64,000 bases of DNA from a virus (IMGVR_UViG_3300027985_001833:1-64000); one strand, 5' to 3'. Positions 1-13,888 are shown, numbered from the stretch's first letter. The notes: generated from the sequence alone by a model not told the origin. Translations and numbers: made by a program.

Positions 1-59
1 GTATCTTCGTCTTCATCTTCAGTATCTTCGTCTTCATCTTCAGTATCTTCGTCTTCATC
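1..59. repeat. 21-bp tandem repeat (gtatcttcgtcttcatcttca) encoding acidic EDEDEDT units of the SSB tail
   Basis: About 2.8 copies visible at the window start. Confidence 0.9.
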
Positions 60-800
60 CAATGCAACGCCAACCAACAAAGCACTGACATCATCGTATG
101 ATTTTACCATATTAGCAACAACAGAAAACAAATCGCATCCTTCATTGAGCGCTTTTTCAAGAATGGTTTTCATCTTAGAATCAAAACGAACAGGTTTTTT
201 AATAGTAACAGAATCCCCAATCACCTTGTATCGAGTATTCATTTTTTCACCAGTTCGTGTAATTTTTATAAAAATTGCGGCATCTGGGTCAGCTATATCA
301 CCATTATCGAAAAATGCTTCCATGATGCCGTCAAATAATGATTTACCAAACATAGCCACCGTTGGTTTAAATGGCTTTTTGCTCCATTCGTCAGACGCCG
401 ATGCGCGATGTTTACGCGGCGTCACTCCCCACAAAAATCGTGTGGAGGCAACCAACTCATCGGCGTCGTCATCGTCCAATTTACCACTTGCTATAGCTTC
501 GCAAACTGGACAACGGCCATTCAGCTTAATTTTGCGTTTTTTCAACAAACGTTGAACAAATGGATGCGCCACAATAGGATTGTTTTTCTTGTCGAGACAA
601 ACAATCATTTTTCCTTCCTTACCAACCTTATAGTGCACCGCCACAGAAAGAAAATTTCTGCCGGCAGTGTCTTCGTTGGGATCATCCTCTCTGCACGGCG
701 GATGAATATAAACAACACTATCGCCCTGCGGCACAGCCCAAAAATCACCACTGCGTTGTTGATCGCTGTACGATTTGCGCATTTTTTTCATATCAACCAT
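1..800 (-). CDS. T4 gp32-like single-stranded DNA-binding protein (3' end runs off the window; not in ORF track)
   Basis: Manual translation from ATG at 800 (AAGGAG SD upstream): MVDMKKMRKSYSDQQRSGDFWAVPQGDSVVYIHPP...VHY...C...GRCPVCE...KITRTGEKMNTRYKV, then an acidic EDEDEDT tail. The His/Cys/CPxC zinc pattern and acidic tail are gp32-like. Confidence 0.75.
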   Translation of the reverse strand, partial: MVDMKKMRKSYSDQQRSGDFWAVPQGDSVVYIHPPCREDDPNEDTAGRNFLSVAVHYKVGKEGKMIVCLDKKNNPIVAHPFVQRLLKKRKIKLNGRCPVCEAIASGKLDDDDADELVASTRFLWGVTPRKHRASASDEWSKKPFKPTVAMFGKSLFDGIMEAFFDNGDIADPDAAIFIKITRTGEKMNTRYKVIGDSVTIKKPVRFDSKMKTILEKALNEGCDLFSVVANMVKSYDDVSALLVGVALDEDEDTEDEDEDTEDEDED

Positions 801-2219: not shown

Positions 2220-5200
2220 TTATCGCGGTTCAATTACTTTTGCCCCGCCACCATTATAGATATACGTAATCGCTTGCCAACGGCGTTGTTTTTCCAACGC
2301 CACTACGATCAAATCTCCAACGTTAAAATTACCTTTCAATTTCCTCCATTCAGAACCGAAACAGATAAAATCCAAATCCAAATCAACACCAGACATCGCC
2401 ACAAACGCCATCTCGTTTCCGCGTTTATCAATTTTTGTTTTAATGCTACAAACAACACCGCAATATGTCCCGCCCACACTACTTTTTTTGAATTTCGAAT
2501 TAGTAATACGTAATTCCCTCACCGTTTCAGTCTTCCAAACATGCGATAATGCCGGATGACGACCTGTGACCAAACGCTCCCATATACTCAAGTCTTTATT
2601 AGCAACCAACTTTTTTCTCAAAATTTCCAAATCAACTGCATATCTGGCCCTAATGTTAGAATACCTAGCGTTAACGACACAACTAACAACCACAGGCGTT
2701 CCAATTCCAGAATCTATGATTGGGCGCATTTCGTCAAAAATCTCAATATCAAATTTCACTCTATTCTGCTTGCCGCTGACATCCTCGATATTGACGTTGG
2801 CGTATCTGGCGCCCCAATTCATCGCCTCGCGTTCCTCTTCAGGCGGCAACTCTCCAGTGTGAAAATCGCCTATTTGATTGTATTTCACCTCAACCATCAT
2901 CCCTGCTATATAAACGACCTTGTTATCATTCGATTTGAAAAAATCTTCCTCGCCCATTGATTCAATACGTATTTTCAAATTTTCTTTAATAAAATCACCA
3001 TAGGCGTCAATCGGATGTTTACCAAACGCCAACGGGTTAACAGCAGAGGCAATCAACTGTCTTTCCTCTGATGCGTAATCAGGTTTATCCTTCGACTTCA
3101 ACAACATCTTCTTGACCTTCTTGTATCCGTTTTCCTTGCTCAACAAAGGCCAAATAACGTCTATTTCGTCGACGAACCACTTAACGTTAGGCAGCATATT
3201 TTCCAACGCCCCTGCCTTGGCCAATGCCACAATAACCCTTTTGTTACATTTACGGCGATCTATTCTGCCCAAAAAATCGAAAAAGCTCTCATATGGTTGG
3301 TTAGCAATAATGGTATCGGCAGCAGCCTCGCCGACGTTTTTGATATCGACTAGGCTGCCTCTAATTGCATTTTCTTGCCTGTCTATTGAGAATTGGACCT
3401 TAGATGTGTTCACAGACGGGGGCAACAGTTCTATGCCTGCCCTCTTTGCCTCCTTGGCTATTTGTTGAATGCGTTGTCTGGAAGGTTCGTTCTTGAGCAA
3501 CGCCCAATAGAATTCCAATGGATGCTTAATTTTCAGATACATCGAGAAATAAGCAATCATCCCATAAGCTGTAGCGTGGGAATTATGGCTAACAACTGGA
3601 TCATATTTATCTGGATCGCTGGTCGCTACGTAATTGTGTCCCTCTGTTGCCATCTCCAAATCGTAACAACGCTTTTTGCCCATAGAGATGATTTCAATTA
3701 TTTTATCCGCATACGTCGGTCTGCCTTTTTTCCACCTTTTTGTTCGCTCCCTTTTCTCGTAATCTTTTTTCTTGTGACACGAATTACAAAGCAATTGTAA
3801 ATTAGACTCGTGGTGATAAACGATATGATTATAATCACACTCCTCTGGTGTTCTATTGTGCGCAACTTCGTGCCCACCCCTACCCTTGCACCCTTTTTCT
3901 CCGCACAACTCGCATGCGCCTTTTGCCCGCTCCCAGATTTTTTCGCACGTACACTTGTATTCTTCGTTGTTTCTGAACGATTGCGAAAATCTGGTGTCTT
4001 TATTCATCCACCAAACGCAATAATCCTTACTGGTGTTTTCGCCCATAAATAACAATTCGTCTCCAACCGATAATCCGGTATTCAACGATTTATATCCACC
4101 AGAAGTCATCAAACGATGGGCGGCGCTTATCAACGGCGTACGATTGCCATTCTCGGTGATCAACTCAAAAACTTCAATTTCACCGTGATCGTGTATATCA
4201 ACCAAACGCCCCGGTCTACAACGACCATCGGAATCCATTTGAATTATATCAATACCGCGATAACGCATTTTTTGTGCTATTGGCGTCAATGCTCCCTTGG
4301 ACCACTTTTTCAAATGAGGATGCCAAACTGGTTCCGTTCTAGAATCACGAGCAGCAACTAAATCCTTAATCGTCACCCAAGGCGTTCCTTGTTTTTGATG
4401 AGTTCCCGCTCTCAAAACATACGAATTTTCCCATAAAGTTTTGTTAAATCCGTAACTCCCAAAAAAGGTGATTGTGTCCATTATCTTATTGGCTTGGGCC
4501 TCAGTCATGTCTGGCGTGTTCTTCATCGCTCCCTTCACAAAATTCTCACGCTCTTTGCCAATCGTTTCATCGCCCTTCTTTTTAGCAATCGCCTTCCTCA
4601 ATGAATCGCTCGTGCCCGGAGCAAATCCCGCTATTTCATTAAAAATCCTGATCACGTGCTCCTGATACACCATGATTCCAAGCGTATCGGATGTAATTTC
4701 AGTCACTTTCGGATGAATTGACGCTTTCCCAATCAACTTAGGATTTTTTTTCCTTTTCACAAACTCAGTGGCCAAACCGCTCCTGGCCGTTCCGGGACGG
4801 TTCAACGCCGTCATGGCAGCCACGTCGCTAAAATCCGTAAATGGAACACCCTCGCATATCTTATCAGCACCAGGGGTATCGTATTGAAAAATGCCAGAAT
4901 AATTGTGATCTGTGAACCCTTGTAACACTTCATGTATGTTGAGGTCTAATTTCTCCAAATCTATCCATTCTCCAGTGTGTTTTTCAATCGCTTCAACGCA
5001 TTCTCTCAACACGGTCAAAGTTCTCAACCCCAAAACGTCTAATTTCACCAAGCCCATCGCTCCAACGCCATACATATCTATCGCGGTCACCAACACATCC
5101 TCGCCATTACTTTTCCTGATCTCCAACGGCACATACTCGGTCAAAGGCTCTGGCGAAACGACAACGCCTGCAGCATGGACACCCAAATTTTTAGCCATAT

Positions 5201-6881
5201 TTTCCAATCGCTTAGCGTGTTTCAATACAAACGGATATTTTTTATCAAACTCTCTACAAACTTTGAAATCCTTGAATGAATCCTCAATGGTTTGGCTGGC
5301 TCTTTCATCTCCGCTGGAGCGCTCAATGATTGAGTTAGTAATAACGTTAACCTCCAAATATGGAACCTCGTAAACCCTGGAAATGTCTTTGACACACTGT
5401 TTCCCGGATAAACGACCTATGGTGGCAATTTGAGCAACTCTGTCTGTGCCATATTTGTCTCTAAGATAACCCATGATTTCTTTTCTTCTAATGTCTTCAA
5501 AATCCATATCAATGTCAGGCATATCCACACGCTCTGGATTCAAAAATCTCTCGAAAATCAAATCATGTTCAATCGGATCAACAGAAGTCAAGCCCATCAG
5601 GTAAGCAACCAAACATCCTGCCACGGAACCACGTCCAGGCCCGCACATTATTCTATTCGTTCTTGCCCAATTATAAATGTCGTAAACCATCAAAAAATAT
5701 GGAACAAATTTTTGAACCCTGATAGAACTAAGTTCGTGAACCAAGCGCTCTTTATAAACCTGCTTCATATGAGCAGTTGACACACCTCTTTTCTGAGCCA
5801 AGATGGCAGCCCGCCTTGAAATTTCTCTCCACGTCCAACCTTGAAAACACAAATCTTTCAAATAATCCCATTCCGTTTTGAACTTGCCGGGCAACTGCAT
5901 TTTTGGGAGAAGAGCGGCGTGCCAATCGATATTCAGCCTGGCCGTTATCGTTTCGTTAAATTCCATTGTCCCATTCAACGCTGCTATGATATTCTGCTCG
6001 CCCATATATCCGTGTCTTTTAACAAAGGCTTGATACATTTGTTTGCGGCTCTTGAGAAAAAAATCGTTTCCATCAAATCTGAATCTCTCTGGATTGGATA
6101 TATGATCGTTAGTGCCGATGCAAAGAAGCACTTCGTGATGAATGTGATCCCCTTCCCAAACATAATGTGCATCCTGGGTAGCTATGAATTTGGCGTCCCC
6201 CCACCTTTCTTTCAACTCCATGGCAAATCTATTCGCCGTGATTTGATCATCTATGGCATGCGGCTGAACCTCAATCCACAAATCTTCGCCAAATTTATCA
6301 CGCAATCTATCAGCGATTTCCAAGGCTTGACGCTTTTTACCGGCGCACACCCTGTCGTAGATGACAGACGACATACATCCGGTTCCCACAACCAACCCAT
6401 CGCCGTGCTCAATTAAAGCATCCAAGTCTATTCTAGGTTTGTAGTAAAAACCATCAACGTAAGCAGCCGTGGACAACCTAAACAGATTCTTCAACCCCTC
6501 ATTATTCTTAGCCCAAACGGTCAAGTGCCAACGGTCGCGAATTCCGTGTTCACTCTCATACTTCTTAATTGCGGCCTTTCTCTCATTAGGTTTCAACCCT
6601 TTGGTGATTTCGGCCTTTTCATCCTCCGTGAGCCCTTTTCGGTGCATATCGTTGCTCACATAGAACTCAATGCCGTGAATGGCCTTTATGCCAGCATCCT
6701 CACACGCCATGTGAGACGCATAATAACCCCTCATTGACCCGTGTTCTGTGAACGCTATGGCAGGTTGCCCCAACTCCGCTGCTCTCTGTGCGTAATCGGG
6801 AATTTTCCCGCAACCGTCAAGTTGACTCATGTCAGAATGAGTGTGAAGGTGAACAAAATCGTCTTTTTCTTTTTTTGCCAT
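2220..6881 (-). CDS. dnaE: DNA polymerase III alpha subunit (family C), intein-containing
   Basis: PHP motifs HLHTHS, TEHG, GIEF, TQDAHY; GPGRGS; catalytic PDIDMDF; KLDVLGL; YGFNK/SHA split by an intein; C-terminal OB folds. Confidence 0.97.
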   Translation of the reverse strand: MAKKEKDDFVHLHTHSDMSQLDGCGKIPDYAQRAAELGQPAIAFTEHGSMRGYYASHMACEDAGIKAIHGIEFYVSNDMHRKGLTEDEKAEITKGLKPNERKAAIKKYESEHGIRDRWHLTVWAKNNEGLKNLFRLSTAAYVDGFYYKPRIDLDALIEHGDGLVVGTGCMSSVIYDRVCAGKKRQALEIADRLRDKFGEDLWIEVQPHAIDDQITANRFAMELKERWGDAKFIATQDAHYVWEGDHIHHEVLLCIGTNDHISNPERFRFDGNDFFLKSRKQMYQAFVKRHGYMGEQNIIAALNGTMEFNETITARLNIDWHAALLPKMQLPGKFKTEWDYLKDLCFQGWTWREISRRAAILAQKRGVSTAHMKQVYKERLVHELSSIRVQKFVPYFLMVYDIYNWARTNRIMCGPGRGSVAGCLVAYLMGLTSVDPIEHDLIFERFLNPERVDMPDIDMDFEDIRRKEIMGYLRDKYGTDRVAQIATIGRLSGKQCVKDISRVYEVPYLEVNVITNSIIERSSGDERASQTIEDSFKDFKVCREFDKKYPFVLKHAKRLENMAKNLGVHAAGVVVSPEPLTEYVPLEIRKSNGEDVLVTAIDMYGVGAMGLVKLDVLGLRTLTVLRECVEAIEKHTGEWIDLEKLDLNIHEVLQGFTDHNYSGIFQYDTPGADKICEGVPFTDFSDVAAMTALNRPGTARSGLATEFVKRKKNPKLIGKASIHPKVTEITSDTLGIMVYQEHVIRIFNEIAGFAPGTSDSLRKAIAKKKGDETIGKERENFVKGAMKNTPDMTEAQANKIMDTITFFGSYGFNKTLWENSYVLRAGTHQKQGTPWVTIKDLVAARDSRTEPVWHPHLKKWSKGALTPIAQKMRYRGIDIIQMDSDGRCRPGRLVDIHDHGEIEVFELITENGNRTPLISAAHRLMTSGGYKSLNTGLSVGDELLFMGENTSKDYCVWWMNKDTRFSQSFRNNEEYKCTCEKIWERAKGACELCGEKGCKGRGGHEVAHNRTPEECDYNHIVYHHESNLQLLCNSCHKKKDYEKRERTKRWKKGRPTYADKIIEIISMGKKRCYDLEMATEGHNYVATSDPDKYDPVVSHNSHATAYGMIAYFSMYLKIKHPLEFYWALLKNEPSRQRIQQIAKEAKRAGIELLPPSVNTSKVQFSIDRQENAIRGSLVDIKNVGEAAADTIIANQPYESFFDFLGRIDRRKCNKRVIVALAKAGALENMLPNVKWFVDEIDVIWPLLSKENGYKKVKKMLLKSKDKPDYASEERQLIASAVNPLAFGKHPIDAYGDFIKENLKIRIESMGEEDFFKSNDNKVVYIAGMMVEVKYNQIGDFHTGELPPEEEREAMNWGARYANVNIEDVSGKQNRVKFDIEIFDEMRPIIDSGIGTPVVVSCVVNARYSNIRARYAVDLEILRKKLVANKDLSIWERLVTGRHPALSHVWKTETVRELRITNSKFKKSSVGGTYCGVVCSIKTKIDKRGNEMAFVAMSGVDLDLDFICFGSEWRKLKGNFNVGDLIVVALEKQRRWQAITYIYNGGGAKVIEPR
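3582..4439 (-). mobile_element. Intein (286 aa) with HNH homing endonuclease inside dnaE
   Basis: Interrupts the conserved GFNK|SHA; begins TLWENS, block B-like ISAAHRL, internal CELC...HEVAH...NLQLLCNSCHKK, block F CYDLEM...HNYVA, ends VVSHN before Ser+1. Confidence 0.9.
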
Positions 6882-6882
6882 C

Positions 6883-7446
6883 TTAGACGCCTAACATGCG
6901 CAATATCCTATCAACGGTGTGCCTCGGGTCGCCTTGTTTCGTATCGATTTTGATTTTTGGAATAGTGATCATCTTCCAAACTTTATCGAATCTCTTTTGA
7001 ATGGCGGTGTAATCCTTTTTATTCGGACACCATCTGACATCCCCGACGCAACGGCTCTTGGCAACCTCATAAGCAACATCCAATTGAACGTAAACAAGCT
7101 TTCCTCTGGAACCTTGCTTGATTCTTTCTTCCCACCACTTGATCATGCTTTTGTAATTCGAGCTATCACCGGCGCAATCGTAAGCAATCGCAGATGGAAG
7201 AGAACGGTCAAGGATTATTCCAGGACTAGTCTTAGACACAAGGTCTGCCACAACCAAATCTTCCCAAAACGTATTAACCGAAACGCCCCATCTTTGTAAA
7301 TCACCGTAATCTCTTTCACCAGTAACCTTGTTGGGCCGTTTCACATCTTCAAACGGCTTGTACAGAACAAGAGTCGTCAGACCTTTCAACAAATTGGCAA
7401 CCGTCGTTTTCCCCGTCCCGTTAATCCCTTCCAACACAACAATCAT
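6883..7446 (-). CDS. Deoxynucleoside monophosphate kinase (thymidylate kinase family)
   Basis: N-terminal IVVLEGINGTGKTT P-loop and ILDRS motif. Confidence 0.85.
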   Translation of the reverse strand: MIVVLEGINGTGKTTVANLLKGLTTLVLYKPFEDVKRPNKVTGERDYGDLQRWGVSVNTFWEDLVVADLVSKTSPGIILDRSLPSAIAYDCAGDSSNYKSMIKWWEERIKQGSRGKLVYVQLDVAYEVAKSRCVGDVRWCPNKKDYTAIQKRFDKVWKMITIPKIKIDTKQGDPRHTVDRILRMLGV

Positions 7447-8438
7447 TATATCTTCTCACCAGTCGCAGGATTTCTTCTCCAAAATTTTCGATATTGAACC
7501 GCTCTATCAATCATCTCTTTCCACATATTGATATTATCAGCCGTGGCCAAACCGCCTAAATCAACCATACTATCGACGTAATCGCCTTGGCCATCAAAAT
7601 AATGGTGCTTGGCAAGATGAAGCGGGCAAGGCGGCAACTCGTCATCACCGTCCAAACGCCTTTGACACTCTTCCATATAGATACACTCTTTGAATTTATC
7701 GTCATCCCCGATGCAAGGCGGTTTGACCAAATCGGCGAAAATCGGATTCACCTTGTTCACCAATTCTTCAATCATCCCCATGATGACCGGTCCCCAAATC
7801 CCGAGTTGAAGAATAAAACAAGACCTTTTGCCTACTATATGCTGAAGCGAACCGATATTAAGCTTCCAACTGATGCGGTGATGAGCGCCCAACGGCAGCA
7901 ACTCTCTTGCGTCTTCCATAGGGATTCCCAATTCAATCAACTTACTATAAGCCCTTTGGATAGCATAGATAGTATCTTGATAAATATCGCTAGCCATCTC
8001 TCCAGCGTCAACGATTGTTTTAGGCAAACGATATTCGCCATTAACCGCAAATTTGTCGACCTTTCGAATACGATGGGATTGGCTCCACCAACTAGATGAA
8101 GCAAGATCTGGTATAATATCCAATCCCATCCTTTCTGGAGAAATCAACGTTCCTATGCGATGTCTGACCGCTTGTTCACGCCAGCTGATGGAAACGTTTT
8201 CAATTAAAAATACAAAATCTATATGTTCACCAATCGGTATACGCTGGGCGATTACGGCTTTGAACAATTTCTCCACCTCTTCAGCAGGAACTTTTTCTCT
8301 CACTTCTTCTGGCAACATCAGGGGCTCATCATCTTTCGACGCCATCCAAACAGAGTAAACAGTTTCCAAAGGGAATTGCGTCCAAGACAATAGTGTTATT
8401 CTCGGTTCATTATTCATCATCATCAAATTCCTCATCAT
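7446..8438 (-). CDS. thyX: Divergent flavin-dependent thymidylate synthase (ThyX-fold) protein
   Basis: EHIDFVF, EQAVRHRI, SQSHR, GIPMEDARELLP, N..SL.H...KR; Cys-rich C-terminus. Confidence 0.8.
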   Translation of the reverse strand: MMRNLMMMNNEPRITLLSWTQFPLETVYSVWMASKDDEPLMLPEEVREKVPAEEVEKLFKAVIAQRIPIGEHIDFVFLIENVSISWREQAVRHRIGTLISPERMGLDIIPDLASSSWWSQSHRIRKVDKFAVNGEYRLPKTIVDAGEMASDIYQDTIYAIQRAYSKLIELGIPMEDARELLPLGAHHRISWKLNIGSLQHIVGKRSCFILQLGIWGPVIMGMIEELVNKVNPIFADLVKPPCIGDDDKFKECIYMEECQRRLDGDDELPPCPLHLAKHHYFDGQGDYVDSMVDLGGLATADNINMWKEMIDRAVQYRKFWRRNPATGEKI

Positions 8439-8610
8439 CGACGAGCGGATTTCTCGTGTTCCACTCTTCCAATTCTTTTTCGTTGTTTATCCACTGCGAC
8501 TTCCATCTTTCTATAAACAACCAACAATAGTCCTTGTGAACTATTCTCCATTTTCCTTTATACAATTCAATTTCTGCGTCGCAAAACGGACAATCTTTTG
8601 GAACTTTCAT
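8410..8610 (-). CDS. Small Zn-finger protein (Lar/restriction-alleviation-like pattern)
   Basis: PKDCPFC...H...C...EEWNTR. Confidence 0.5.
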   Translation of the reverse strand: MKVPKDCPFCDAEIELYKGKWRIVHKDYCWLFIERWKSQWINNEKELEEWNTRNPLVDDEEFDDDE

Positions 8611-8668
8611 TTCGCACCTGCAACCAGTGGTTTACAACACCGCCGCTCTACCATTGGGCCACCCGGCC
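8611..8668 (-). pseudogene. 3'-truncated tRNA remnant (anticodon loop reads Thr UGU, or Tyr GUA in an alternative register)
   Basis: GGCCGGG TG GCCC AATGGTA GAGC G GCGGT GTTGTAA ACCAC TGGTT GCAGG TGCGAA. The 3' T-stem and 3' acceptor strand are absent. Confidence 0.6.
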
Positions 8669-8680
8669 AACTCTAATCAT

Positions 8681-8788
8681 TCACAAATTATAGATGTCAT
8701 CGGGATTCTTGCCCGCCGCTTTGTACCCCTTCGCGTACATGGCCATATCCAAAAAACGCATTTCACCGCCACAATTCAAGCATTTCAT
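8681..8788 (-). CDS. Small hypothetical protein, 35 aa (not in ORF track)
   Basis: MKCLNCGGEMRFLDMAMYAKGYKAAGKNPDDIYNL; overlaps the end of the aminotransferase. Confidence 0.4.
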   Translation of the reverse strand: MKCLNCGGEMRFLDMAMYAKGYKAAGKNPDDIYNL

Positions 8789-9926
8789 TATACACATCGC
8801 AAAGGATGATCAAGCCTTCATTCAAATCTTCAATTGAGATATTCAAAGGCGGCGTAATTTTAATCGGTCCTGGACCCTTCCTAAAAGCTCCTATTATCAA
8901 ACCGCGCTTCAAACATCTATCGGCCAATTCCAAACAATCCACTTGGCTATCGTAGGCAAGCAACATTCCTGCCCCTCTGGCATCAACATCCAAATTGATT
9001 TTCAAAGTATTTCTGATTATATCGCCCTTTTCTTGGATATCTTCCAAATTGCCTTCATCCTCCAACCAATCCAACATAGTATCAACATATGAACAAGATG
9101 CAGGATTGCCCCCAAAAGTTGAAAAATGTGAACCTGGCGTAAAAGCCTGGGCAATGTCATTTCGTGCTAACATTGCTCCAACCGGAAATCCCATTCCAAT
9201 CCCTTTAGCCAAGGTGACAATATCAGGCTGAATTTTAGCCAATTGCCCATATGTTATGCCACCACACCGACCCATACCGGTTTGAACCTCATCAAAAATC
9301 AACAATATGCCGTTCAGTTCAGCATATCGTTTCAAATTTTCCAACCAACTCCAATCTGGAACGCGCACATCATTATTGCCGAATATTGGTGAAAGTATAA
9401 TTGCGGCAGCAGTGGGCGGAATCTCATAAATATCCGTGAAATGATGGAAATCGCCAGGCAAATTTCCAAATCCATCATAATGATAACTCGGTCCATCACC
9501 GGCTGCCAACGCACCATATGTACGCCCATGGAATCCGTCTTTTTGAGACCATATTTGGAAAGTGCGAGCTTCATCCTCAGCAAATCTATCATATTGATAT
9601 TTCCTTGCCAACTTGATAGCAGCCTCCACGGATTCCGTGCCGCTATTGCACCAAAATACCCTATCCATCCCGGTCGCTTTGCACAAACGCTTTGAAACCT
9701 GATTTCTCAAAGAATATTGAAACAAATTCGGAGAGTGCAAAACGATTCCTTGGGCCAACGCTTGAGCAGCCAGCACATGCTGCTCGCAACCATACCCAAG
9801 GCTGGCCGTCCCCACGTCTGTGAAAAAATCCAAATATTCATTCCCACCATAGGTAACGAGCCGTGAACCATTGCCGCCCACAAACACCAAATCCTTGAAT
9901 TTCAACGTATTCATGATGCTATGCAT
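8763..9926 (-). CDS. Class III PLP-dependent aminotransferase (ArgD/OAT-like fold, altered specificity residues)
   Basis: NSGTESVEAAIKLAR, FHGRTYGA, IFDEVQTGMGR, PDIVTLAKG (catalytic Lys), STFGGNP, TPPL. Confidence 0.92.
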   Translation of the reverse strand: MHSIMNTLKFKDLVFVGGNGSRLVTYGGNEYLDFFTDVGTASLGYGCEQHVLAAQALAQGIVLHSPNLFQYSLRNQVSKRLCKATGMDRVFWCNSGTESVEAAIKLARKYQYDRFAEDEARTFQIWSQKDGFHGRTYGALAAGDGPSYHYDGFGNLPGDFHHFTDIYEIPPTAAAIILSPIFGNNDVRVPDWSWLENLKRYAELNGILLIFDEVQTGMGRCGGITYGQLAKIQPDIVTLAKGIGMGFPVGAMLARNDIAQAFTPGSHFSTFGGNPASCSYVDTMLDWLEDEGNLEDIQEKGDIIRNTLKINLDVDARGAGMLLAYDSQVDCLELADRCLKRGLIIGAFRKGPGPIKITPPLNISIEDLNEGLIILCDVYNEMLELWR

Positions 9927-10860
9927 CTATTTTCTCCTTGTGAATGTTGTGAACAATTTCCTGCCAACTATTCACCGTTTTCACCAACGGCGCATCAACT
10001 TCCTTCTCTCCTTTTAAATCCAAAAGAAACACTGTAATGCCTAACGCTGAAACCTCCAGCGCGTGTTTCTCTCTGTCCTCAACAAACCATTGCGGAAACG
10101 CAGGTTTAAGATGATCACAGATAATTTCCGCTTTATCCCTACCAAATAACAACAAATCATACGGAACGCCGTATCTATCCAACCACCGTATTGTATCAGA
10201 GTACAATCTTTTGTGTTTTTTGTATGGGCGAGCTGTTATTATGGCTACTTTATAACCGATTTCTTTGAATAATTTAATACATTCAATTGAGTTGTCAATT
10301 GGAGACAAGTCAAGAAATTTCCCTTTTTCTCTCCATTCAAATTTTAACGCTTCTTGTTTGGCCAGAATCTGACTTGGCGATTCACAAGAGTTGGCTATTT
10401 CAGCCAACTCATCATCCAACGGTCCCAAATCAACAACACAACCATCTAAATCCAAACCAATCAACCGAGAATCGCTTGTCAATTTGGCTTGCGCTACTTT
10501 TACTCGATGTCGAATCACTTCTGTTTTGCGAATGAACCTATTATAAAATTCTTCGTGCGTAATTCCATATAAATGCATCAATGATATTAAGTATTTGATT
10601 ACATCAACCGCTTCCTCAAGTATGGCGCTTTCACTTATCCTCAAATCCCCCAAAATGTGCTCTTTGTAATTAGTGGACGCCGATGCCAACTCCGTCACTT
10701 CTTCGTTCAACCCAATGATAAAATCCTTGGCTAATGCTAATTTATCCACTTCCGGCATATCGCCAGAGCCAAACCCAAATTCCTGTTGCTGGAAAGCTTG
10801 TGCGCTCCAAATTTTTTCCAATTTACAACATTTAATGTTTGAATTTTGATCAAACGGCAT
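9919..10860 (-). CDS. All-alpha NTP pyrophosphatase (dUTPase/MazG-like) fused to HAD 5'(3')-nucleotidase
   Basis: N-term EEVTE...EEAVD acidic motifs; C-term GLDLDG, ITAR, K, FVED HAD motifs; start moved to ATG 10860 (GAGGGA SD). Confidence 0.8.
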   Translation of the reverse strand: MPFDQNSNIKCCKLEKIWSAQAFQQQEFGFGSGDMPEVDKLALAKDFIIGLNEEVTELASASTNYKEHILGDLRISESAILEEAVDVIKYLISLMHLYGITHEEFYNRFIRKTEVIRHRVKVAQAKLTSDSRLIGLDLDGCVVDLGPLDDELAEIANSCESPSQILAKQEALKFEWREKGKFLDLSPIDNSIECIKLFKEIGYKVAIITARPYKKHKRLYSDTIRWLDRYGVPYDLLLFGRDKAEIICDHLKPAFPQWFVEDREKHALEVSALGITVFLLDLKGEKEVDAPLVKTVNSWQEIVHNIHKEKIDA

Positions 10861-10904
10861 AGATTCCCTCGCGATTAAAACCTTGACGCACGAGACGCGC
10901 CATA

Positions 10905-11891
10905 TTACAACCATTTCTCGGCTAATTCAATTGCGTTTTCCAAAATTTTATCAACGGTTCCACGCGAATTCCATTCAGCAAAACGACCCAATGGCGCCAT
11001 ATTTTCCGGCCACTGTATTTTTTCGCCCATTGGGTGCAAGTGCCCTTTCAAACCTCTTGTTATTTTTTTTATAACATAACCAGCACCGAATATAAAATTT
11101 AAATCAGAAACGACATCTACCATTCGTGGTGCCAATTCACCATTCACTTCACAAACGTAACACACACCATCAACAGAAAAACGATGAATAGCATCACCAG
11201 GCGTATATGGCGTATAGACATAGTCCCAACCAGCATATCTATCATTTTTTGGCACAACGTCAATCAAATTCAAATTCATCGCCATAGCATCAGGAATATA
11301 AAAATCAACCAATCTCTTGATAATCCACAACGGCACGGTGAAAATCAAATAGTCAAAAGCATACCGCCTTCCCTTATCAGTCATCAGAGAATTTTCGCCC
11401 AACACTTTGATCACTTTTTCCCTCACTATCTCGCCACCATCCCTTTTCAACCTTGCGGCCAACCTATTCACCATATCCACAAAATCCAACCTGATAGCGC
11501 CCTTGGAAATACTATTGGCTGGGTCATTCATGGCGGTCTTGTAATGGCTGCCTGGCTCCATCATCCTGGTTTTACGAAAATGGTCCATTTGAATTTGTGC
11601 GACCTTGTACTTGTCCATCCGTTGAAACAATTCCGGATAGCGTTCAACCACCCCTCTGTTAAGAATTCCGCCTTTCACGGAGTAGTTGGAAAAAACCAAC
11701 CCCAAATCGATGAACAAGCCCGTCATGTTATCAGTTCGGTGTATGTACTTCAAACCGCCAGCAAGAAATTCCCCGCCCAACTTACCACACTCAAACATCT
11801 TAACATGCGCCCCAAAACTGGAAAAAATGCATGAACTCACCAATCCAGCCACACCGCCACCGACAACCAAAACGTCTTTCGGTTTACTCAT
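10905..11891 (-). CDS. FAD-dependent oxidoreductase (UDP-galactopyranose mutase/amine oxidase-like fold)
   Basis: VLVVGGGVAGL...FE...LGG dinucleotide-binding motif; C-terminal PLGRFAEW; start moved to ATG 11891 (GAGG SD). Confidence 0.8.
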   Translation of the reverse strand: MSKPKDVLVVGGGVAGLVSSCIFSSFGAHVKMFECGKLGGEFLAGGLKYIHRTDNMTGLFIDLGLVFSNYSVKGGILNRGVVERYPELFQRMDKYKVAQIQMDHFRKTRMMEPGSHYKTAMNDPANSISKGAIRLDFVDMVNRLAARLKRDGGEIVREKVIKVLGENSLMTDKGRRYAFDYLIFTVPLWIIKRLVDFYIPDAMAMNLNLIDVVPKNDRYAGWDYVYTPYTPGDAIHRFSVDGVCYVCEVNGELAPRMVDVVSDLNFIFGAGYVIKKITRGLKGHLHPMGEKIQWPENMAPLGRFAEWNSRGTVDKILENAIELAEKWL

Positions 11892-11905
11892 AAACGCCTC
11901 GCAAC

Positions 11906-11984
11906 ATAATAGGAAAACGCGCTGTCGAATGTGGAAACCGGCCAAAGTTTTGCCAGCAGATCGAGCAGCGCGTTTTCCTATTAT
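11906..11984. repeat. Perfect 19-bp inverted repeat (ataataggaaaacgcgctg / cagcgcgttttcctattat) around a 41-nt partly paired core
   Basis: Arms at 11906-11924 and 11966-11984. Confidence 0.92.
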
Positions 11985-12008
11985 ACCGTACAGCAATGTT
12001 CATAGCAA
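11980..12008 (-). promoter_or_regulatory. Sigma70-type promoter for the nucleotide-metabolism/dnaE operon
   Basis: TTGCTA-17 nt-TATAAT. Confidence 0.7.
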
Positions 12009-12024: not shown

Positions 12025-12795
12025 TTATTCAGGCAAACCCAACACGCCAGCCGATACCAATTGACCAATACTTTCTGCCATTATGGATAATTTTCTTTTA
12101 TCCAACCCTTTAATTAATATATTGAAATTTTTATTTTTTCTCGATACCGGCTTCAATATTTCCAAATTGGCCTTAGATAGATTAAGCGTCATATCATCTA
12201 ATGCACAGGTCAATTCCGCATCAAATGTATCGGACGCAGGCCGCAGCTTCAGAAGAATCAATAAAGCATCCCTGCCGTAATTTGCACGAACATACACAGC
12301 CACATAACCGCTGGTTTTTGATCTATCCGCGACAAACAACTTTCCCGGAGTCGGGACTGTGCCTGCAATAGCAAATTCATATCCGGGCATGCTCTTCAAC
12401 AATCGTTGGACAAAAAAATCAAACTTTTTCAACAACTTTTCTCTTTTAATTTTAGCATTAGTCCTTTTGGCCTTCTTGGATGCCAAAATGGCAACACGAG
12501 ATGGCCCGTTGCGCCTAGCATCTTGTCTGCTTCGTTTTTTCCGCGCATTGGACAATTTATCGCAAAAACGCAAAAACGCCCCGTCATCACCGTTTGATTC
12601 AAATCCATCATCGGTCTCGGTCAAAAAAACACCCAAACTAAGTTTTTGATCTTTCAAATGATTTCTGAACGCTCTACAAATTCTTTTTAAATCACAAGGC
12701 TGCCGCTCATCCGAATCCGTTGAAGCGACATTGCCATCACAAGCACAATTGAATTTTTTATATCTCGAAAAACATTGCGGTAATTTATCGCCCAT
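12025..12795 (-). CDS. Hypothetical basic protein with N-terminal Cys cluster
   Basis: CF...CACDG...PC...C; overlaps the sigma-like gene. Confidence 0.6.
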   Translation of the reverse strand: MGDKLPQCFSRYKKFNCACDGNVASTDSDERQPCDLKRICRAFRNHLKDQKLSLGVFLTETDDGFESNGDDGAFLRFCDKLSNARKKRSRQDARRNGPSRVAILASKKAKRTNAKIKREKLLKKFDFFVQRLLKSMPGYEFAIAGTVPTPGKLFVADRSKTSGYVAVYVRANYGRDALLILLKLRPASDTFDAELTCALDDMTLNLSKANLEILKPVSRKNKNFNILIKGLDKRKLSIMAESIGQLVSAGVLGLPE

Positions 12796-13888
12796 TCTTC
12801 GCCTTCCTCAATTCAGCAACCAAACATCCATACCAATCGACCGGGATTTTCTCTATGGTTCCTATATCTCCAAACAACAAACCTTGTATGACATCGAAGT
12901 GACCGACCAAAACCAAGGTACAACACTCTTTGCCTCGCTTTATAAGCATAACAACGCCCCAGTTATAAAAATCAATATCTCTAGTATAAATACCGTTTTC
13001 TTCACAAATCCTGTTTATCACAACGTCATCCAGAGACATTTTGGATATAATTTTTGAAATCAGTTTTTCATCTCTCTTATCCATTCTGCTGATGTGAATT
13101 ATCGGCCATCTTTTACTATTTACCATGTCACCGTACAGACTTATGAATTCATCTTTCTTGGCCAGCTTGGTAAAACGCCTCTTAATAGCGTGTATGGCCC
13201 ACGAAACTTGATTCATAGTCAAATCCAATTCTTGGGCAACATCATAAATTGTCTTTTTGCTTCCAAACAATATTTTGGTTAATCTATTTTGGGCCGACGA
13301 ATCGTCTATATCAAACAAACTAAAATAGACATCCCTTTCCCTGTCAGTCATCTCTTCCATTAATTTTTTTTCAAATTTCACCAACAAGTTGTAATTCTGC
13401 AGCTTGATTAATTGTTCACACGGATTTCCATCGATGCCAAAATTATGAATGATCTTGTGAAGCACATCTTCATCTATATTATTCAACTTCATAGCATTCA
13501 CACGAACACCATATTGATCGCAACTGTTATTCGCACATGCCCAAGCGCCCTTATTTTTCAACATAATTTTACCACATGCCCAACAAACGTATCTTCTTGG
13601 CGCGTTATTGACATAAGCTCCACAAGCTTGATATTGGTTTACCATCTTGGATAGCATCGGTATAAACATAGTGTCCAACACCTTACCCGCAAACGCTGCC
13701 AACGTTCCTCTTCTCGTATCATCATAATGACCCAAGGCATCCAGCAAAAACATCTTGGCCTCTTGCTTATAATCATCTATGGTGAAACTAGGATCCACAT
13801 TGGCTAGATAATCATATTTACGTGCCTTCATGTTTATCAACGAATCCAAACTTTTCAAAACTTCTACTGCTGATTTTTGGTGTACCAT
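12785..13888 (-). CDS. Sigma70-family-like factor with Zn-ribbon insertion and C-terminal extension
   Basis: Region 2-like DDYKQEAKMFLLDALGHYDDTRRGTLAAFA; region 4-like MTDRERDVY...KTIYDVAQELDLTMNQVSWAIHAIKRR. Confidence 0.7.
   Translation of the reverse strand: MVHQKSAVEVLKSLDSLINMKARKYDYLANVDPSFTIDDYKQEAKMFLLDALGHYDDTRRGTLAAFAGKVLDTMFIPMLSKMVNQYQACGAYVNNAPRRYVCWACGKIMLKNKGAWACANNSCDQYGVRVNAMKLNNIDEDVLHKIIHNFGIDGNPCEQLIKLQNYNLLVKFEKKLMEEMTDRERDVYFSLFDIDDSSAQNRLTKILFGSKKTIYDVAQELDLTMNQVSWAIHAIKRRFTKLAKKDEFISLYGDMVNSKRWPIIHISRMDKRDEKLISKIISKMSLDDVVINRICEENGIYTRDIDFYNWGVVMLIKRGKECCTLVLVGHFDVIQGLLFGDIGTIEKIPVDWYGCLVAELRKAKNGR

Follow-up and report, generated by a model that had tools for sequence, protein, structure and literature searches.

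Does an environmental phage assemble a modified thymidine analogue at the nucleotide level, before its DNA is replicated? The question is raised by a block of six genes ending in the polymerase gene dnaE in the virus record IMGVR_UViG_3300027985_001833. The window analyzed here (64,000 nucleotides, nt) is the first 64 kb of this single 78.5-kb IMG/VR record, for which CheckV estimates a completeness of 77%. A preliminary description of the DNA had noted tightly packed genes with dnaE last; family matches bear this out and place six genes on the minus strand. The genes run from 11891 to 2220 in the order given below. Neighboring genes overlap by 1-10 nt or are separated by a 1-nt gap; only the aminotransferase and ThyX genes stand farther apart, with a spacer of 325 nt. 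Each line gives coordinates, strand, and the encoded protein with its evidence.

10905-11891, minus strand: small FAD/NAD-binding flavoprotein, 328 amino acids (GxGxxG motif, N-terminal Pyr_redox_2 match, model fold)
9919-10860, minus strand: fusion of a MazG-like, all-alpha nucleoside triphosphate (NTP) pyrophosphatase and a HAD domain resembling 5'(3')-deoxynucleotidases (NT5C) (NT5C and PRA-PH matches, motifs); the open reading frame (ORF) is open to 10914 and its likely start is the ATG at 10860
8763-9926, minus strand: class III (ArgD/OAT-like) aminotransferase dependent on pyridoxal 5'-phosphate (PLP) (Aminotran_3, E-value 1.9e-70)
7446-8438, minus strand: divergent ThyX-fold protein, here called the Cys4-ThyX type (Thy1, 72.3 bits; start at 8438 or 8420)
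6883-7446, minus strand: deoxynucleoside monophosphate (dNMP) kinase of the thymidylate type (Thymidylate_kin, 29.3 bits; phrog_761, E-value 3.8e-11)
2220-6881, minus strand: DnaE-type replicative polymerase alpha subunit (DNA_pol3_alpha, 1.8e-80; PHP, finger and HHH_6 domains)

The block is a real, conserved and undescribed phage nucleotide module, and we found no paper in the literature that describes this gene set. It encodes the four roles that the preliminary description had recognized, i.e., a ThyX-fold enzyme for one-carbon chemistry at C5, a dNMP kinase, a fusion of an NTP pyrophosphatase with a 5'-deoxynucleotidase-type HAD domain, and a polymerase of its own. We tentatively propose, at somewhat less than an even chance, that the module makes an amine-bearing, C5-substituted deoxyuridine (dU) nucleotide before replication.

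Conservation of the block was examined by searching IMG/VR with two independent seeds, the flavoprotein family and the ThyX family, after which the window proteins were mapped onto the loci found. Homologues number in the hundreds, on contigs of ~80-116 kb. The five genes stand immediately upstream of DnaE in ~18 non-redundant phage contigs, and the cassette phages derive from several different metagenomes. Many of the cassette-bearing contigs are 95-116 kb long and have terminal repeats. Identity to the window proteins falls as low as 42% for DnaE, 41% for ThyX, ~30% for the aminotransferase and 25% for the flavoprotein (range 25-50%), and in locus L061 the flavoprotein is detectable by profile comparison only. 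The order of ThyX and aminotransferase is interchangeable among relatives, and neither gene leaves the block in the ~18 contigs. The dNMP kinase is always the final gene of the block, and locus L047 has two copies of the aminotransferase. This five-gene linkage is far beyond chance and reflects an old, maintained synteny. The co-occurrence that the preliminary description had suggested looking for in viral collections thus holds across deep divergence.

Some apparent relatives were set aside. The aminotransferase loci L001-L012, with identities of only 24-27%, were dropped since their phages are unrelated and carry another set of genes, and a 371-residue protein upstream of ThyX in L058, considered as a flavoprotein homologue, proved not to be homologous.

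A subset of the relatives carries an additional gene. A protein of ~260 amino acids with weak matches to S-adenosylmethionine (SAM)-dependent methyltransferases (TRM5/TYW2 or DUF938) adjoins ThyX in these phages, and in L013 a clear Methyltransf_11 gene (180-1067) is added within the block. No such methyltransferase-like gene is present in the genome from which the window comes. The insertions fit a multi-step small-molecule pathway. The methyltransferase-like genes beside ThyX are located as follows.

L013:180-1067
L016:11836-12645
L017:11826-12626
L018:13021-13770
L022:6430-7197
L061:4671-5462

The ThyX-fold protein is central to any interpretation of the block. Its Thy1 (PF02511) score lies above the 24.8-bit cut-off, while the TIGR02170 score of 58.5 bits stays under the equivalog cut-off of 87.9. 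The AlphaFold model, with a predicted local distance difference test (pLDDT) value of 82, has the ThyX fold, with a target-normalized template modeling (TM) score of ~0.7 to chains of Thermotoga maritima ThyX (TM0449). Gln75, Arg78-His79-Arg80, Arg147 and Arg174 of the T. maritima enzyme correspond to Q89, R92-H93-R94, R178 and R205 here, and Ser88-x-Arg90 corresponds to S121-x-R123. All of these residues are invariant in 47 (30 + 17) sequences. Deoxycytidine monophosphate (dCMP) was judged less likely as the substrate, because the uracil-binding arginines are all kept.

The preliminary description had called this ThyX divergent, and the departure from canonical enzymes is found at the active-site loop. 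An insert of 20-27 residues follows RHRIG and splits the RHRxxS motif; the chain then continues with SSWWSQS-x-R, which we aligned with S-Y-N-E-L-S88-G-R90 of T. maritima. In canonical ThyX, Ser88 and Tyr91 are strictly conserved, and Tyr91 mutants show 1000-fold slower flavin oxidation (PMC11940539). In every Cys4-ThyX member the Tyr91 position is occupied by Ile, Leu or Met, in a register that was set from the Y91F primer and the text of the same paper (PMC11940539) and is somewhat uncertain because the loop was aligned by hand. The protein further has a helical C-terminal extension of ~120 residues with four invariant cysteines (C207, C242, C252 and C271), a pattern that suggests a zinc or iron-sulfur site. 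An Atlas search with this extension returned ThyX fragments alone and no known domain.

Five complete relatives each contain one Thy1 gene. No ThyA fold (PF00303) was found in this record or in the five 100%-complete relatives, in agreement with the preliminary description, and positive controls were matched. If Cys4-ThyX does not make thymidylate (dTMP), the phage would depend on host thymidylate or do without it. A reading in which the DNA contains dU, as in PBS1, was rejected because a ThyX-fold synthase is always present. A further Cys4-type ThyX, of 420 amino acids, occurs in the record G007 (L062:6051-9266), where it follows a nucleoside 2-deoxyribosyltransferase-like protein, a YfbR-like HD 5'-deoxynucleotidase and a DUF6378 protein. 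This neighborhood resembles the deoxyribosyltransferase/HD surroundings of the ThyX of Listeria phage LIS04 (L031).

The aminotransferase is a class III enzyme of fold type I. Its nearest solved structure is Aquifex AcOAT (2eh6; 38% identity, E-value 2.5e-62), and its TIGR00707 score is 283 bits against a cut-off of 410; all 25 NCBIfam models listed score under their cut-offs. The PLP-binding Lys241, the pair Asp212 and Gln215 (DxVQ) and Arg135 of the FHGRT motif are invariant. The C-terminal arginine that in OAT and ArgD binds the alpha-carboxylate of glutamate or 2-oxoglutarate (motif I-R-F-x-P-P-L) is replaced by Lys356 in the window and by lysine in four relatives. The same position is Arg in longer "type B" relatives and in L015.

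In the fusion protein, the C-terminal half matches NT5C (PF06941) with 28.7 bits against a cut-off of 24.8 and contains the HAD motifs DLDGC (DxDG), TAR and EDR. The N-terminal half has the metal-binding pattern ExxE(12-28)ExxD (E71-x-x-E74 ... E101-x-x-D104) and scores 18.1 bits for PRA-PH, under the cut-off of 21.3. The fusion of relative L014 reaches 23.9 bits for MazG (cut-off 22) and also matches dUTPase_2. Among GenBank phages only weak HAD matches were obtained. From these motifs, the fusion could carry a deoxynucleoside triphosphate (dNTP) via the dNMP to the nucleoside. Phage SH-Ab 15599 offers a comparison, with a pathway-linked dTTPase/dUTPase of the dUTPase/dCTP-pyrophosphatase fold, a type of enzyme that is characteristic of thymidine-hypermodifying phages (PMC13458397).

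Homologues of the flavoprotein, all of them unnamed, number more than 160 and lie on contigs of phage size (up to ~110 kb); its Atlas clusters are 95-100% viral. A search of 185,579 prokaryote species genomes gave no relative, and there was no match in GenBank phages. The AlphaFold2 model (pLDDT 94) places the protein in the superfamily of amine oxidases, protoporphyrinogen oxidase (PPO), phytoene desaturase and UDP-galactopyranose mutase (UGM), according to Foldseek and VIA-align. The best VIA-align match is the eukaryote-type UGM 4dsg (Z 27.1, root-mean-square deviation 3.1 Å over 319 residues), followed by PPO (Z 24.9) and two uncharacterized archaeal oxidoreductases (Z 23-24; 23.6 for 3ka7). 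In these model comparisons the margin between UGM and PPO is too small for assigning a reaction. No Pfam or NCBIfam UGM model matched the protein, and its sequence similarity to solved structures is limited to the dinucleotide-binding N-terminus.

From the observed gene identities, folds, conserved residues and linkage, we infer a possible pathway, with its substrate, all of its reactions and the base that finally results. A phage-only, co-inherited nucleotide-tailoring module would act on the deoxynucleotide pool before replication. Cys4-ThyX would bind deoxyuridine monophosphate (dUMP) and FAD and move a one-carbon unit to C5; given its rebuilt loop and the loss of Tyr91, the reaction may not simply end at dTMP. 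The ArgD-like aminotransferase would then turn the C5 substituent into an amine, giving a product of the 5-aminomethyl-dUMP type. In most members the flavoprotein with the UGM/amine-oxidase fold would provide a redox or trimming step, and in some the added methyltransferases would decorate the product. The modified monophosphate would be phosphorylated by the dNMP kinase, the MazG-HAD fusion would clear competing dTTP and dUTP via the monophosphate to the nucleoside, and the phage DnaE would incorporate the analogue. Two sub-routes can be envisaged. In one, capture of water is followed by oxidation and transamination to 5-aminomethyl-dUMP; in the other, an amine captures the exocyclic methylene and the flavoprotein trims the adduct, comparable to MnmC and to gp47 of PaMx11 (PMC8989533). 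A pre-replicative amine route would be the most economical account of a core of ThyX, transaminase and kinase next to a polymerase, and it would also explain why there is a flavoprotein confined to phages, a fusion that destroys nucleotides and, in some members, a methyltransferase.

Several observations weigh against this pathway. The preliminary description had offered oxidation by the FAD enzyme as one option; as a fixed step this does not fit G006, which does without the flavoprotein. In G006, a complete 101-kb phage, the ThyX, aminotransferase and kinase genes are adjacent in a different neighborhood (SNF2 helicase, peptidases, no DnaE nearby); the whole genome lacks the flavoprotein and the flank has no MazG/HAD gene, which argues against a fixed five-enzyme pathway. 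G007, an 83%-complete record of 46 kb, has the Cys4-ThyX without aminotransferase or flavoprotein. The amine-oxidase/UGM fold is atypical for an alcohol oxidase, and the aminotransferase, as judged from its identity to 2eh6, has diverged only moderately from true ArgD. All dUMP-binding residues of a working thymidylate synthase are kept in Cys4-ThyX, compatible with plain dTMP synthesis, and the ThyX proteins of Pbunavirus and of Listeria phage LIS04 likewise lack Tyr91. No member of the cassette group has been cultured. Cultured Pbunavirus phages carry remote homologues of ThyX, a HAD protein, DnaE and the N-terminal region of the flavoprotein, and restriction enzymes cut a phage collection that contained PB1-like phages, for which no resistance was noted (PMC4482731). 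Because G006 lacks the flavoprotein, this enzyme is not indispensable, and neither sub-route is cleanly favored.

The strongest rival, nearly as likely as the favored amine route, is an ordinary supply of dTTP, in which ThyX is a thymidylate synthase, the MazG-like domain a dUTPase that provides it with dUMP, the kinase a thymidylate kinase, and the other enzymes are accessory. The aminotransferase and flavoprotein would then take part in the metabolism of amino acids or polyamines, supply ThyX with one-carbon units or redox equivalents, or furnish counter-ions for packaged DNA, and the accessory genes would travel along merely through a shared early/middle transcription unit. The retained dUMP-binding residues, the gene content of G007, the closeness of the aminotransferase to ArgD and the related ThyX/HAD/DnaE module of Pbunavirus, for which no restriction resistance is reported (PMC4482731), all favor this explanation. 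A trimeric dUTPase is missing in four of five genomes, a gap that one of the MazG type could usefully fill; the Atlas has a cluster of MazG-ThyX fusions, and unrelated phages also place genes of the arginine/ornithine/polyamine type beside DnaE. On the other hand, an ordinary supply leaves unexplained why the pyrophosphatase is joined to a dNMP-destroying HAD domain of the 5'-deoxynucleotidase type, why the ThyX, aminotransferase and kinase genes are adjacent also in a phage with a different replication module, why the flavoprotein family is restricted to phages, and why methyltransferase genes lie beside ThyX. Furthermore, the loss of Tyr91 should cripple normal turnover (PMC11940539).

A Mannich variant resembling MnmEG-MnmC chemistry, which we consider unlikely, would have an amino acid or diamine from the aminotransferase capture the ThyX-bound exocyclic methylene, after which the flavoprotein trims the adduct by C-N oxidation and the optional methyltransferases yield a methylaminomethyl-type base. 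Membership of the flavoprotein in a superfamily of C-N bond oxidizers agrees with this, although UGM and PPO resemble its structure more closely than do MnmC and gp47, which are of the DAO family. The combination of a FAD-dependent trimming enzyme, a SAM methyltransferase and a flavin/folate C5 transferase parallels the conversion of cmnm5U via nm5U to mnm5U and the PaMx11 system (PMC8989533), and methyltransferase-like genes indeed lie within the block of some relatives. An ArgD-like enzyme would suit side chains of the Nalpha-substituted ornithine or glutamate-semialdehyde type, and loss of the flavoprotein, as in G006, would be tolerated by leaving an untrimmed product. However, release of an amine adduct is not known for any ThyX, and the variant leaves the amine donor unspecified. 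When this variant is counted in, base modification of one kind or the other becomes slightly more probable than its absence. Very unlikely, finally, is a nucleotide-derived product that never enters DNA, such as a nucleoside or nucleotide signal, an inhibitor or a modified RNA precursor. Some nucleoside-antibiotic pathways employ C5 methylases that resemble ThyX, e.g., PolB of polyoxin, the HAD phosphatase could release a free nucleoside, and the nearest fold to that of the flavoprotein acts on nucleotide-sugars. Against such a product, the block lies constantly just upstream of DnaE and includes a dNMP kinase, and a phosphatase fused to a dNTP pyrophosphatase better fits depletion of a pool.

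The proposed amine route shares its logic with known phages that contain modified DNA. Synthesis of 5-hydroxymethyl-deoxycytidine in T4, of 5-hydroxymethyl-dU in SPO1, SP8 and phi-e, and the pre-replicative half of the pathways of phiW-14, ViI, M6 and SH-Ab 15599 all combine a C5 one-carbon synthase acting on a monophosphate, a dNMP kinase, an enzyme that clears away the competing canonical dNTP, and a phage polymerase. Whereas the known pre-replicative systems use hydroxymethylases of the ThyA fold, the block described here has a ThyX fold and no ThyA fold. In hypermodified phages, 5-HMUDK and aGPT-Pplase/DADT work on polymeric DNA to introduce the amines. In the present block, in contrast to these polymer-level systems, a PLP aminotransferase and a flavoprotein adjoin the nucleotide enzymes; neither 5-HMUDK nor aGPT-Pplase turned up in general scans of ~45 genome proteins, in which no dedicated model was run.

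Compared with canonical ThyX (TM0449), Cys4-ThyX has the same fold and dUMP-binding residues and differs by the loss of Tyr91, the loop insert and the Cys4 extension. The nearest precedent for a modifying synthase of the ThyX fold is gp130 of phage SP-15, a divergent Thy1-fold protein proposed for this role in a phage that builds its C5-modified dU as the triphosphate (PMC5977210); this precedent is itself a hypothesis only. The SP-15/Thornevirus-type ThyX proteins (gp130 and LIS04_124) are 27-31% identical to the window protein. LIS04_124, from the SP15-like Listeria phage, gave the best ThyX E-value among isolates (4e-23), but has R-S-K instead of RHR, no loop insert and no Cys4 set, and it has a deoxyribosyltransferase and an HD protein as neighbors but no aminotransferase. 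Pbunavirus (PB1/KPP12) encodes a ThyX (gp58, 29% identical), a protein with HAD motifs (gp56) and a DnaE-type polymerase (gp54). Its hypothetical protein gp64 resembles the N-terminal region of the flavoprotein (hhalign probability 90%, E-value 2e-6, 126 columns), a similarity confined to the first third. The class III aminotransferase, a MazG-NT5C fusion of the present type and the Cys4 set are lacking in Pbunavirus.

Flavin- and folate-dependent transfer of a one-carbon unit to C5 of uracil likewise occurs in the tRNA (c)mnm5U pathway (MnmEG and MnmC) and in PaMx11 (gp47 and gp48). In these pathways a FAD enzyme acts on the C5-aminomethyl side chain, optionally followed by methyl or acetyl transfer (PMC8989533). 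The enzymes differ from those of the present block in that they act on RNA or DNA polymers, use FAD enzymes of the DAO family rather than UGM/PPO-like ones, and include no PLP aminotransferase. We regard it as a rather doubtful possibility that a ThyX-fold enzyme was turned into a C5 one-carbon transferase of a non-reducing kind, which, with an aminotransferase and usually a flavoprotein, builds an amine-bearing dUMP wholly at the nucleotide level. A widespread environmental clade of DnaE-encoding myoviruses would then replicate with a thymidine analogue and share no enzyme with the ThyA/5-HMUDK/aGPT-Pplase routes.

The polymerase at the end of the block is 42-69% identical to the DnaE proteins downstream of the cassette in relatives, and no GenBank phage has a relative above 35% identity. 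It is interrupted by an insertion of ~284 residues with an internal HNH motif at the conserved site GFNK|SHA. The C-terminal end of the insertion, His-Asn before Ser, is intein-like; its N-terminal residue is Thr, not Cys, Ser or Ala. The insertion is shared with L023, whereas most relatives lack it and have abutting DnaE halves, and some others have different interruptions of ~800 nt at or near the same point. An intein (PF14890) is also present in the 573-residue Cys4-ThyX homologue P0230. The insertions and inteins in both proteins indicate that inteins and homing elements have repeatedly targeted this clade's genes for nucleotide metabolism and replication.

An unrelated phage group (L001:3968-13665; also L003, L004 and L009-L011) has a split DnaE. 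Among or beside the DnaE halves of L001 lie genes for an ornithine cyclodeaminase, a glyoxalase-fold protein, an aldehyde dehydrogenase and a DDAH/amidinotransferase-like protein, and the cluster further includes a class III aminotransferase, a UDP-glucose-dehydrogenase-like and a saccharopine-dehydrogenase-like protein, and an exonuclease. It looks like an arginine/ornithine/polyamine-type set within a replication module.

Three smaller features were also located in and near the block.

3585-4436, minus strand: HNH-containing intein-like insertion in DnaE, residues ~816-1099, read at GFNK|SHA
8410-8610, minus strand: doubtful 66-residue ORF in the spacer between aminotransferase and ThyX, without family match
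11980-12008, minus strand: candidate sigma-70-like promoter TTGCTA-17-TATAAT, 10 of 12 consensus positions

The small ORF has no tblastn counterpart in any related locus. The preliminary description had assigned the block one promoter at 11980-12008. The hexamers are indeed present, reading from 12008 to 11980 in the sole sizeable intergenic gap, which is 133 nt long and precedes the flavoprotein gene, but such matches are no commoner than expected: 34 were found in the region versus 28.5 +/- 5.5 in shuffled sequence. A single promoter for the block is plausible, with this site as a candidate. Two conserved genes, at 12785-13888 and 12025-12795 (both minus strand), always lie upstream of the cassette. 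The first shows faint similarity to sigma-70 region 2 (3.9e-6 in relative L014; 0.0057 to an NCBIfam sigma factor here). If this gene is sigma-like, the phage may direct its own transcription, which weakens the call of a sigma-70 promoter. Rfam and tRNA scans of the window gave no RNA genes.

The source record has at least 100 ORFs, and the ~100 that were retained are all on the minus strand. Family scans identified genes for a tail sheath, portal, large terminase and head protease, so this is a contractile-tailed phage, and its replication set includes, besides DnaE, DnaB, a DnaC-like loader and a primase. According to Logan contigs, the DNA derives from a hydrothermal-vent metagenome, and part of it also occurs in a marine metagenome. 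At the start of the window (1-60), ~2.8 copies of the 21-nt unit GTATCTTCGTCTTCATCTTCA fall within an open-ended minus-strand ORF (3-824), where they would encode an acidic, Asp/Glu-rich repeat. Beyond the window, at genome position 76450-77094 (L068:13450-14094, minus strand), lies a gene for a pentapeptide-repeat protein (E-value 1.5e-27), possibly a DNA mimic. The same early region encodes a DnaJ-like protein, a DHH phosphoesterase and a trypsin-like protease.

If the proposed amine route is correct, the flavin-dependent (ThyX) fold would for the first time be the basis of base replacement and a PLP transaminase would for the first time be used on a deoxynucleotide, giving amino-modified DNA without a post-replicative step. 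The route would also provide new enzymology for C5-functionalized nucleotides, useful for preparing modified dNTPs, and reveal a new anti-restriction and anti-CRISPR strategy as well as a means of recognizing modified DNA in metagenomes. Should it prove wrong, the block still contains two uncharacterized enzyme families, Cys4-ThyX and the phage-only flavoprotein, both tightly tied to phage replication.

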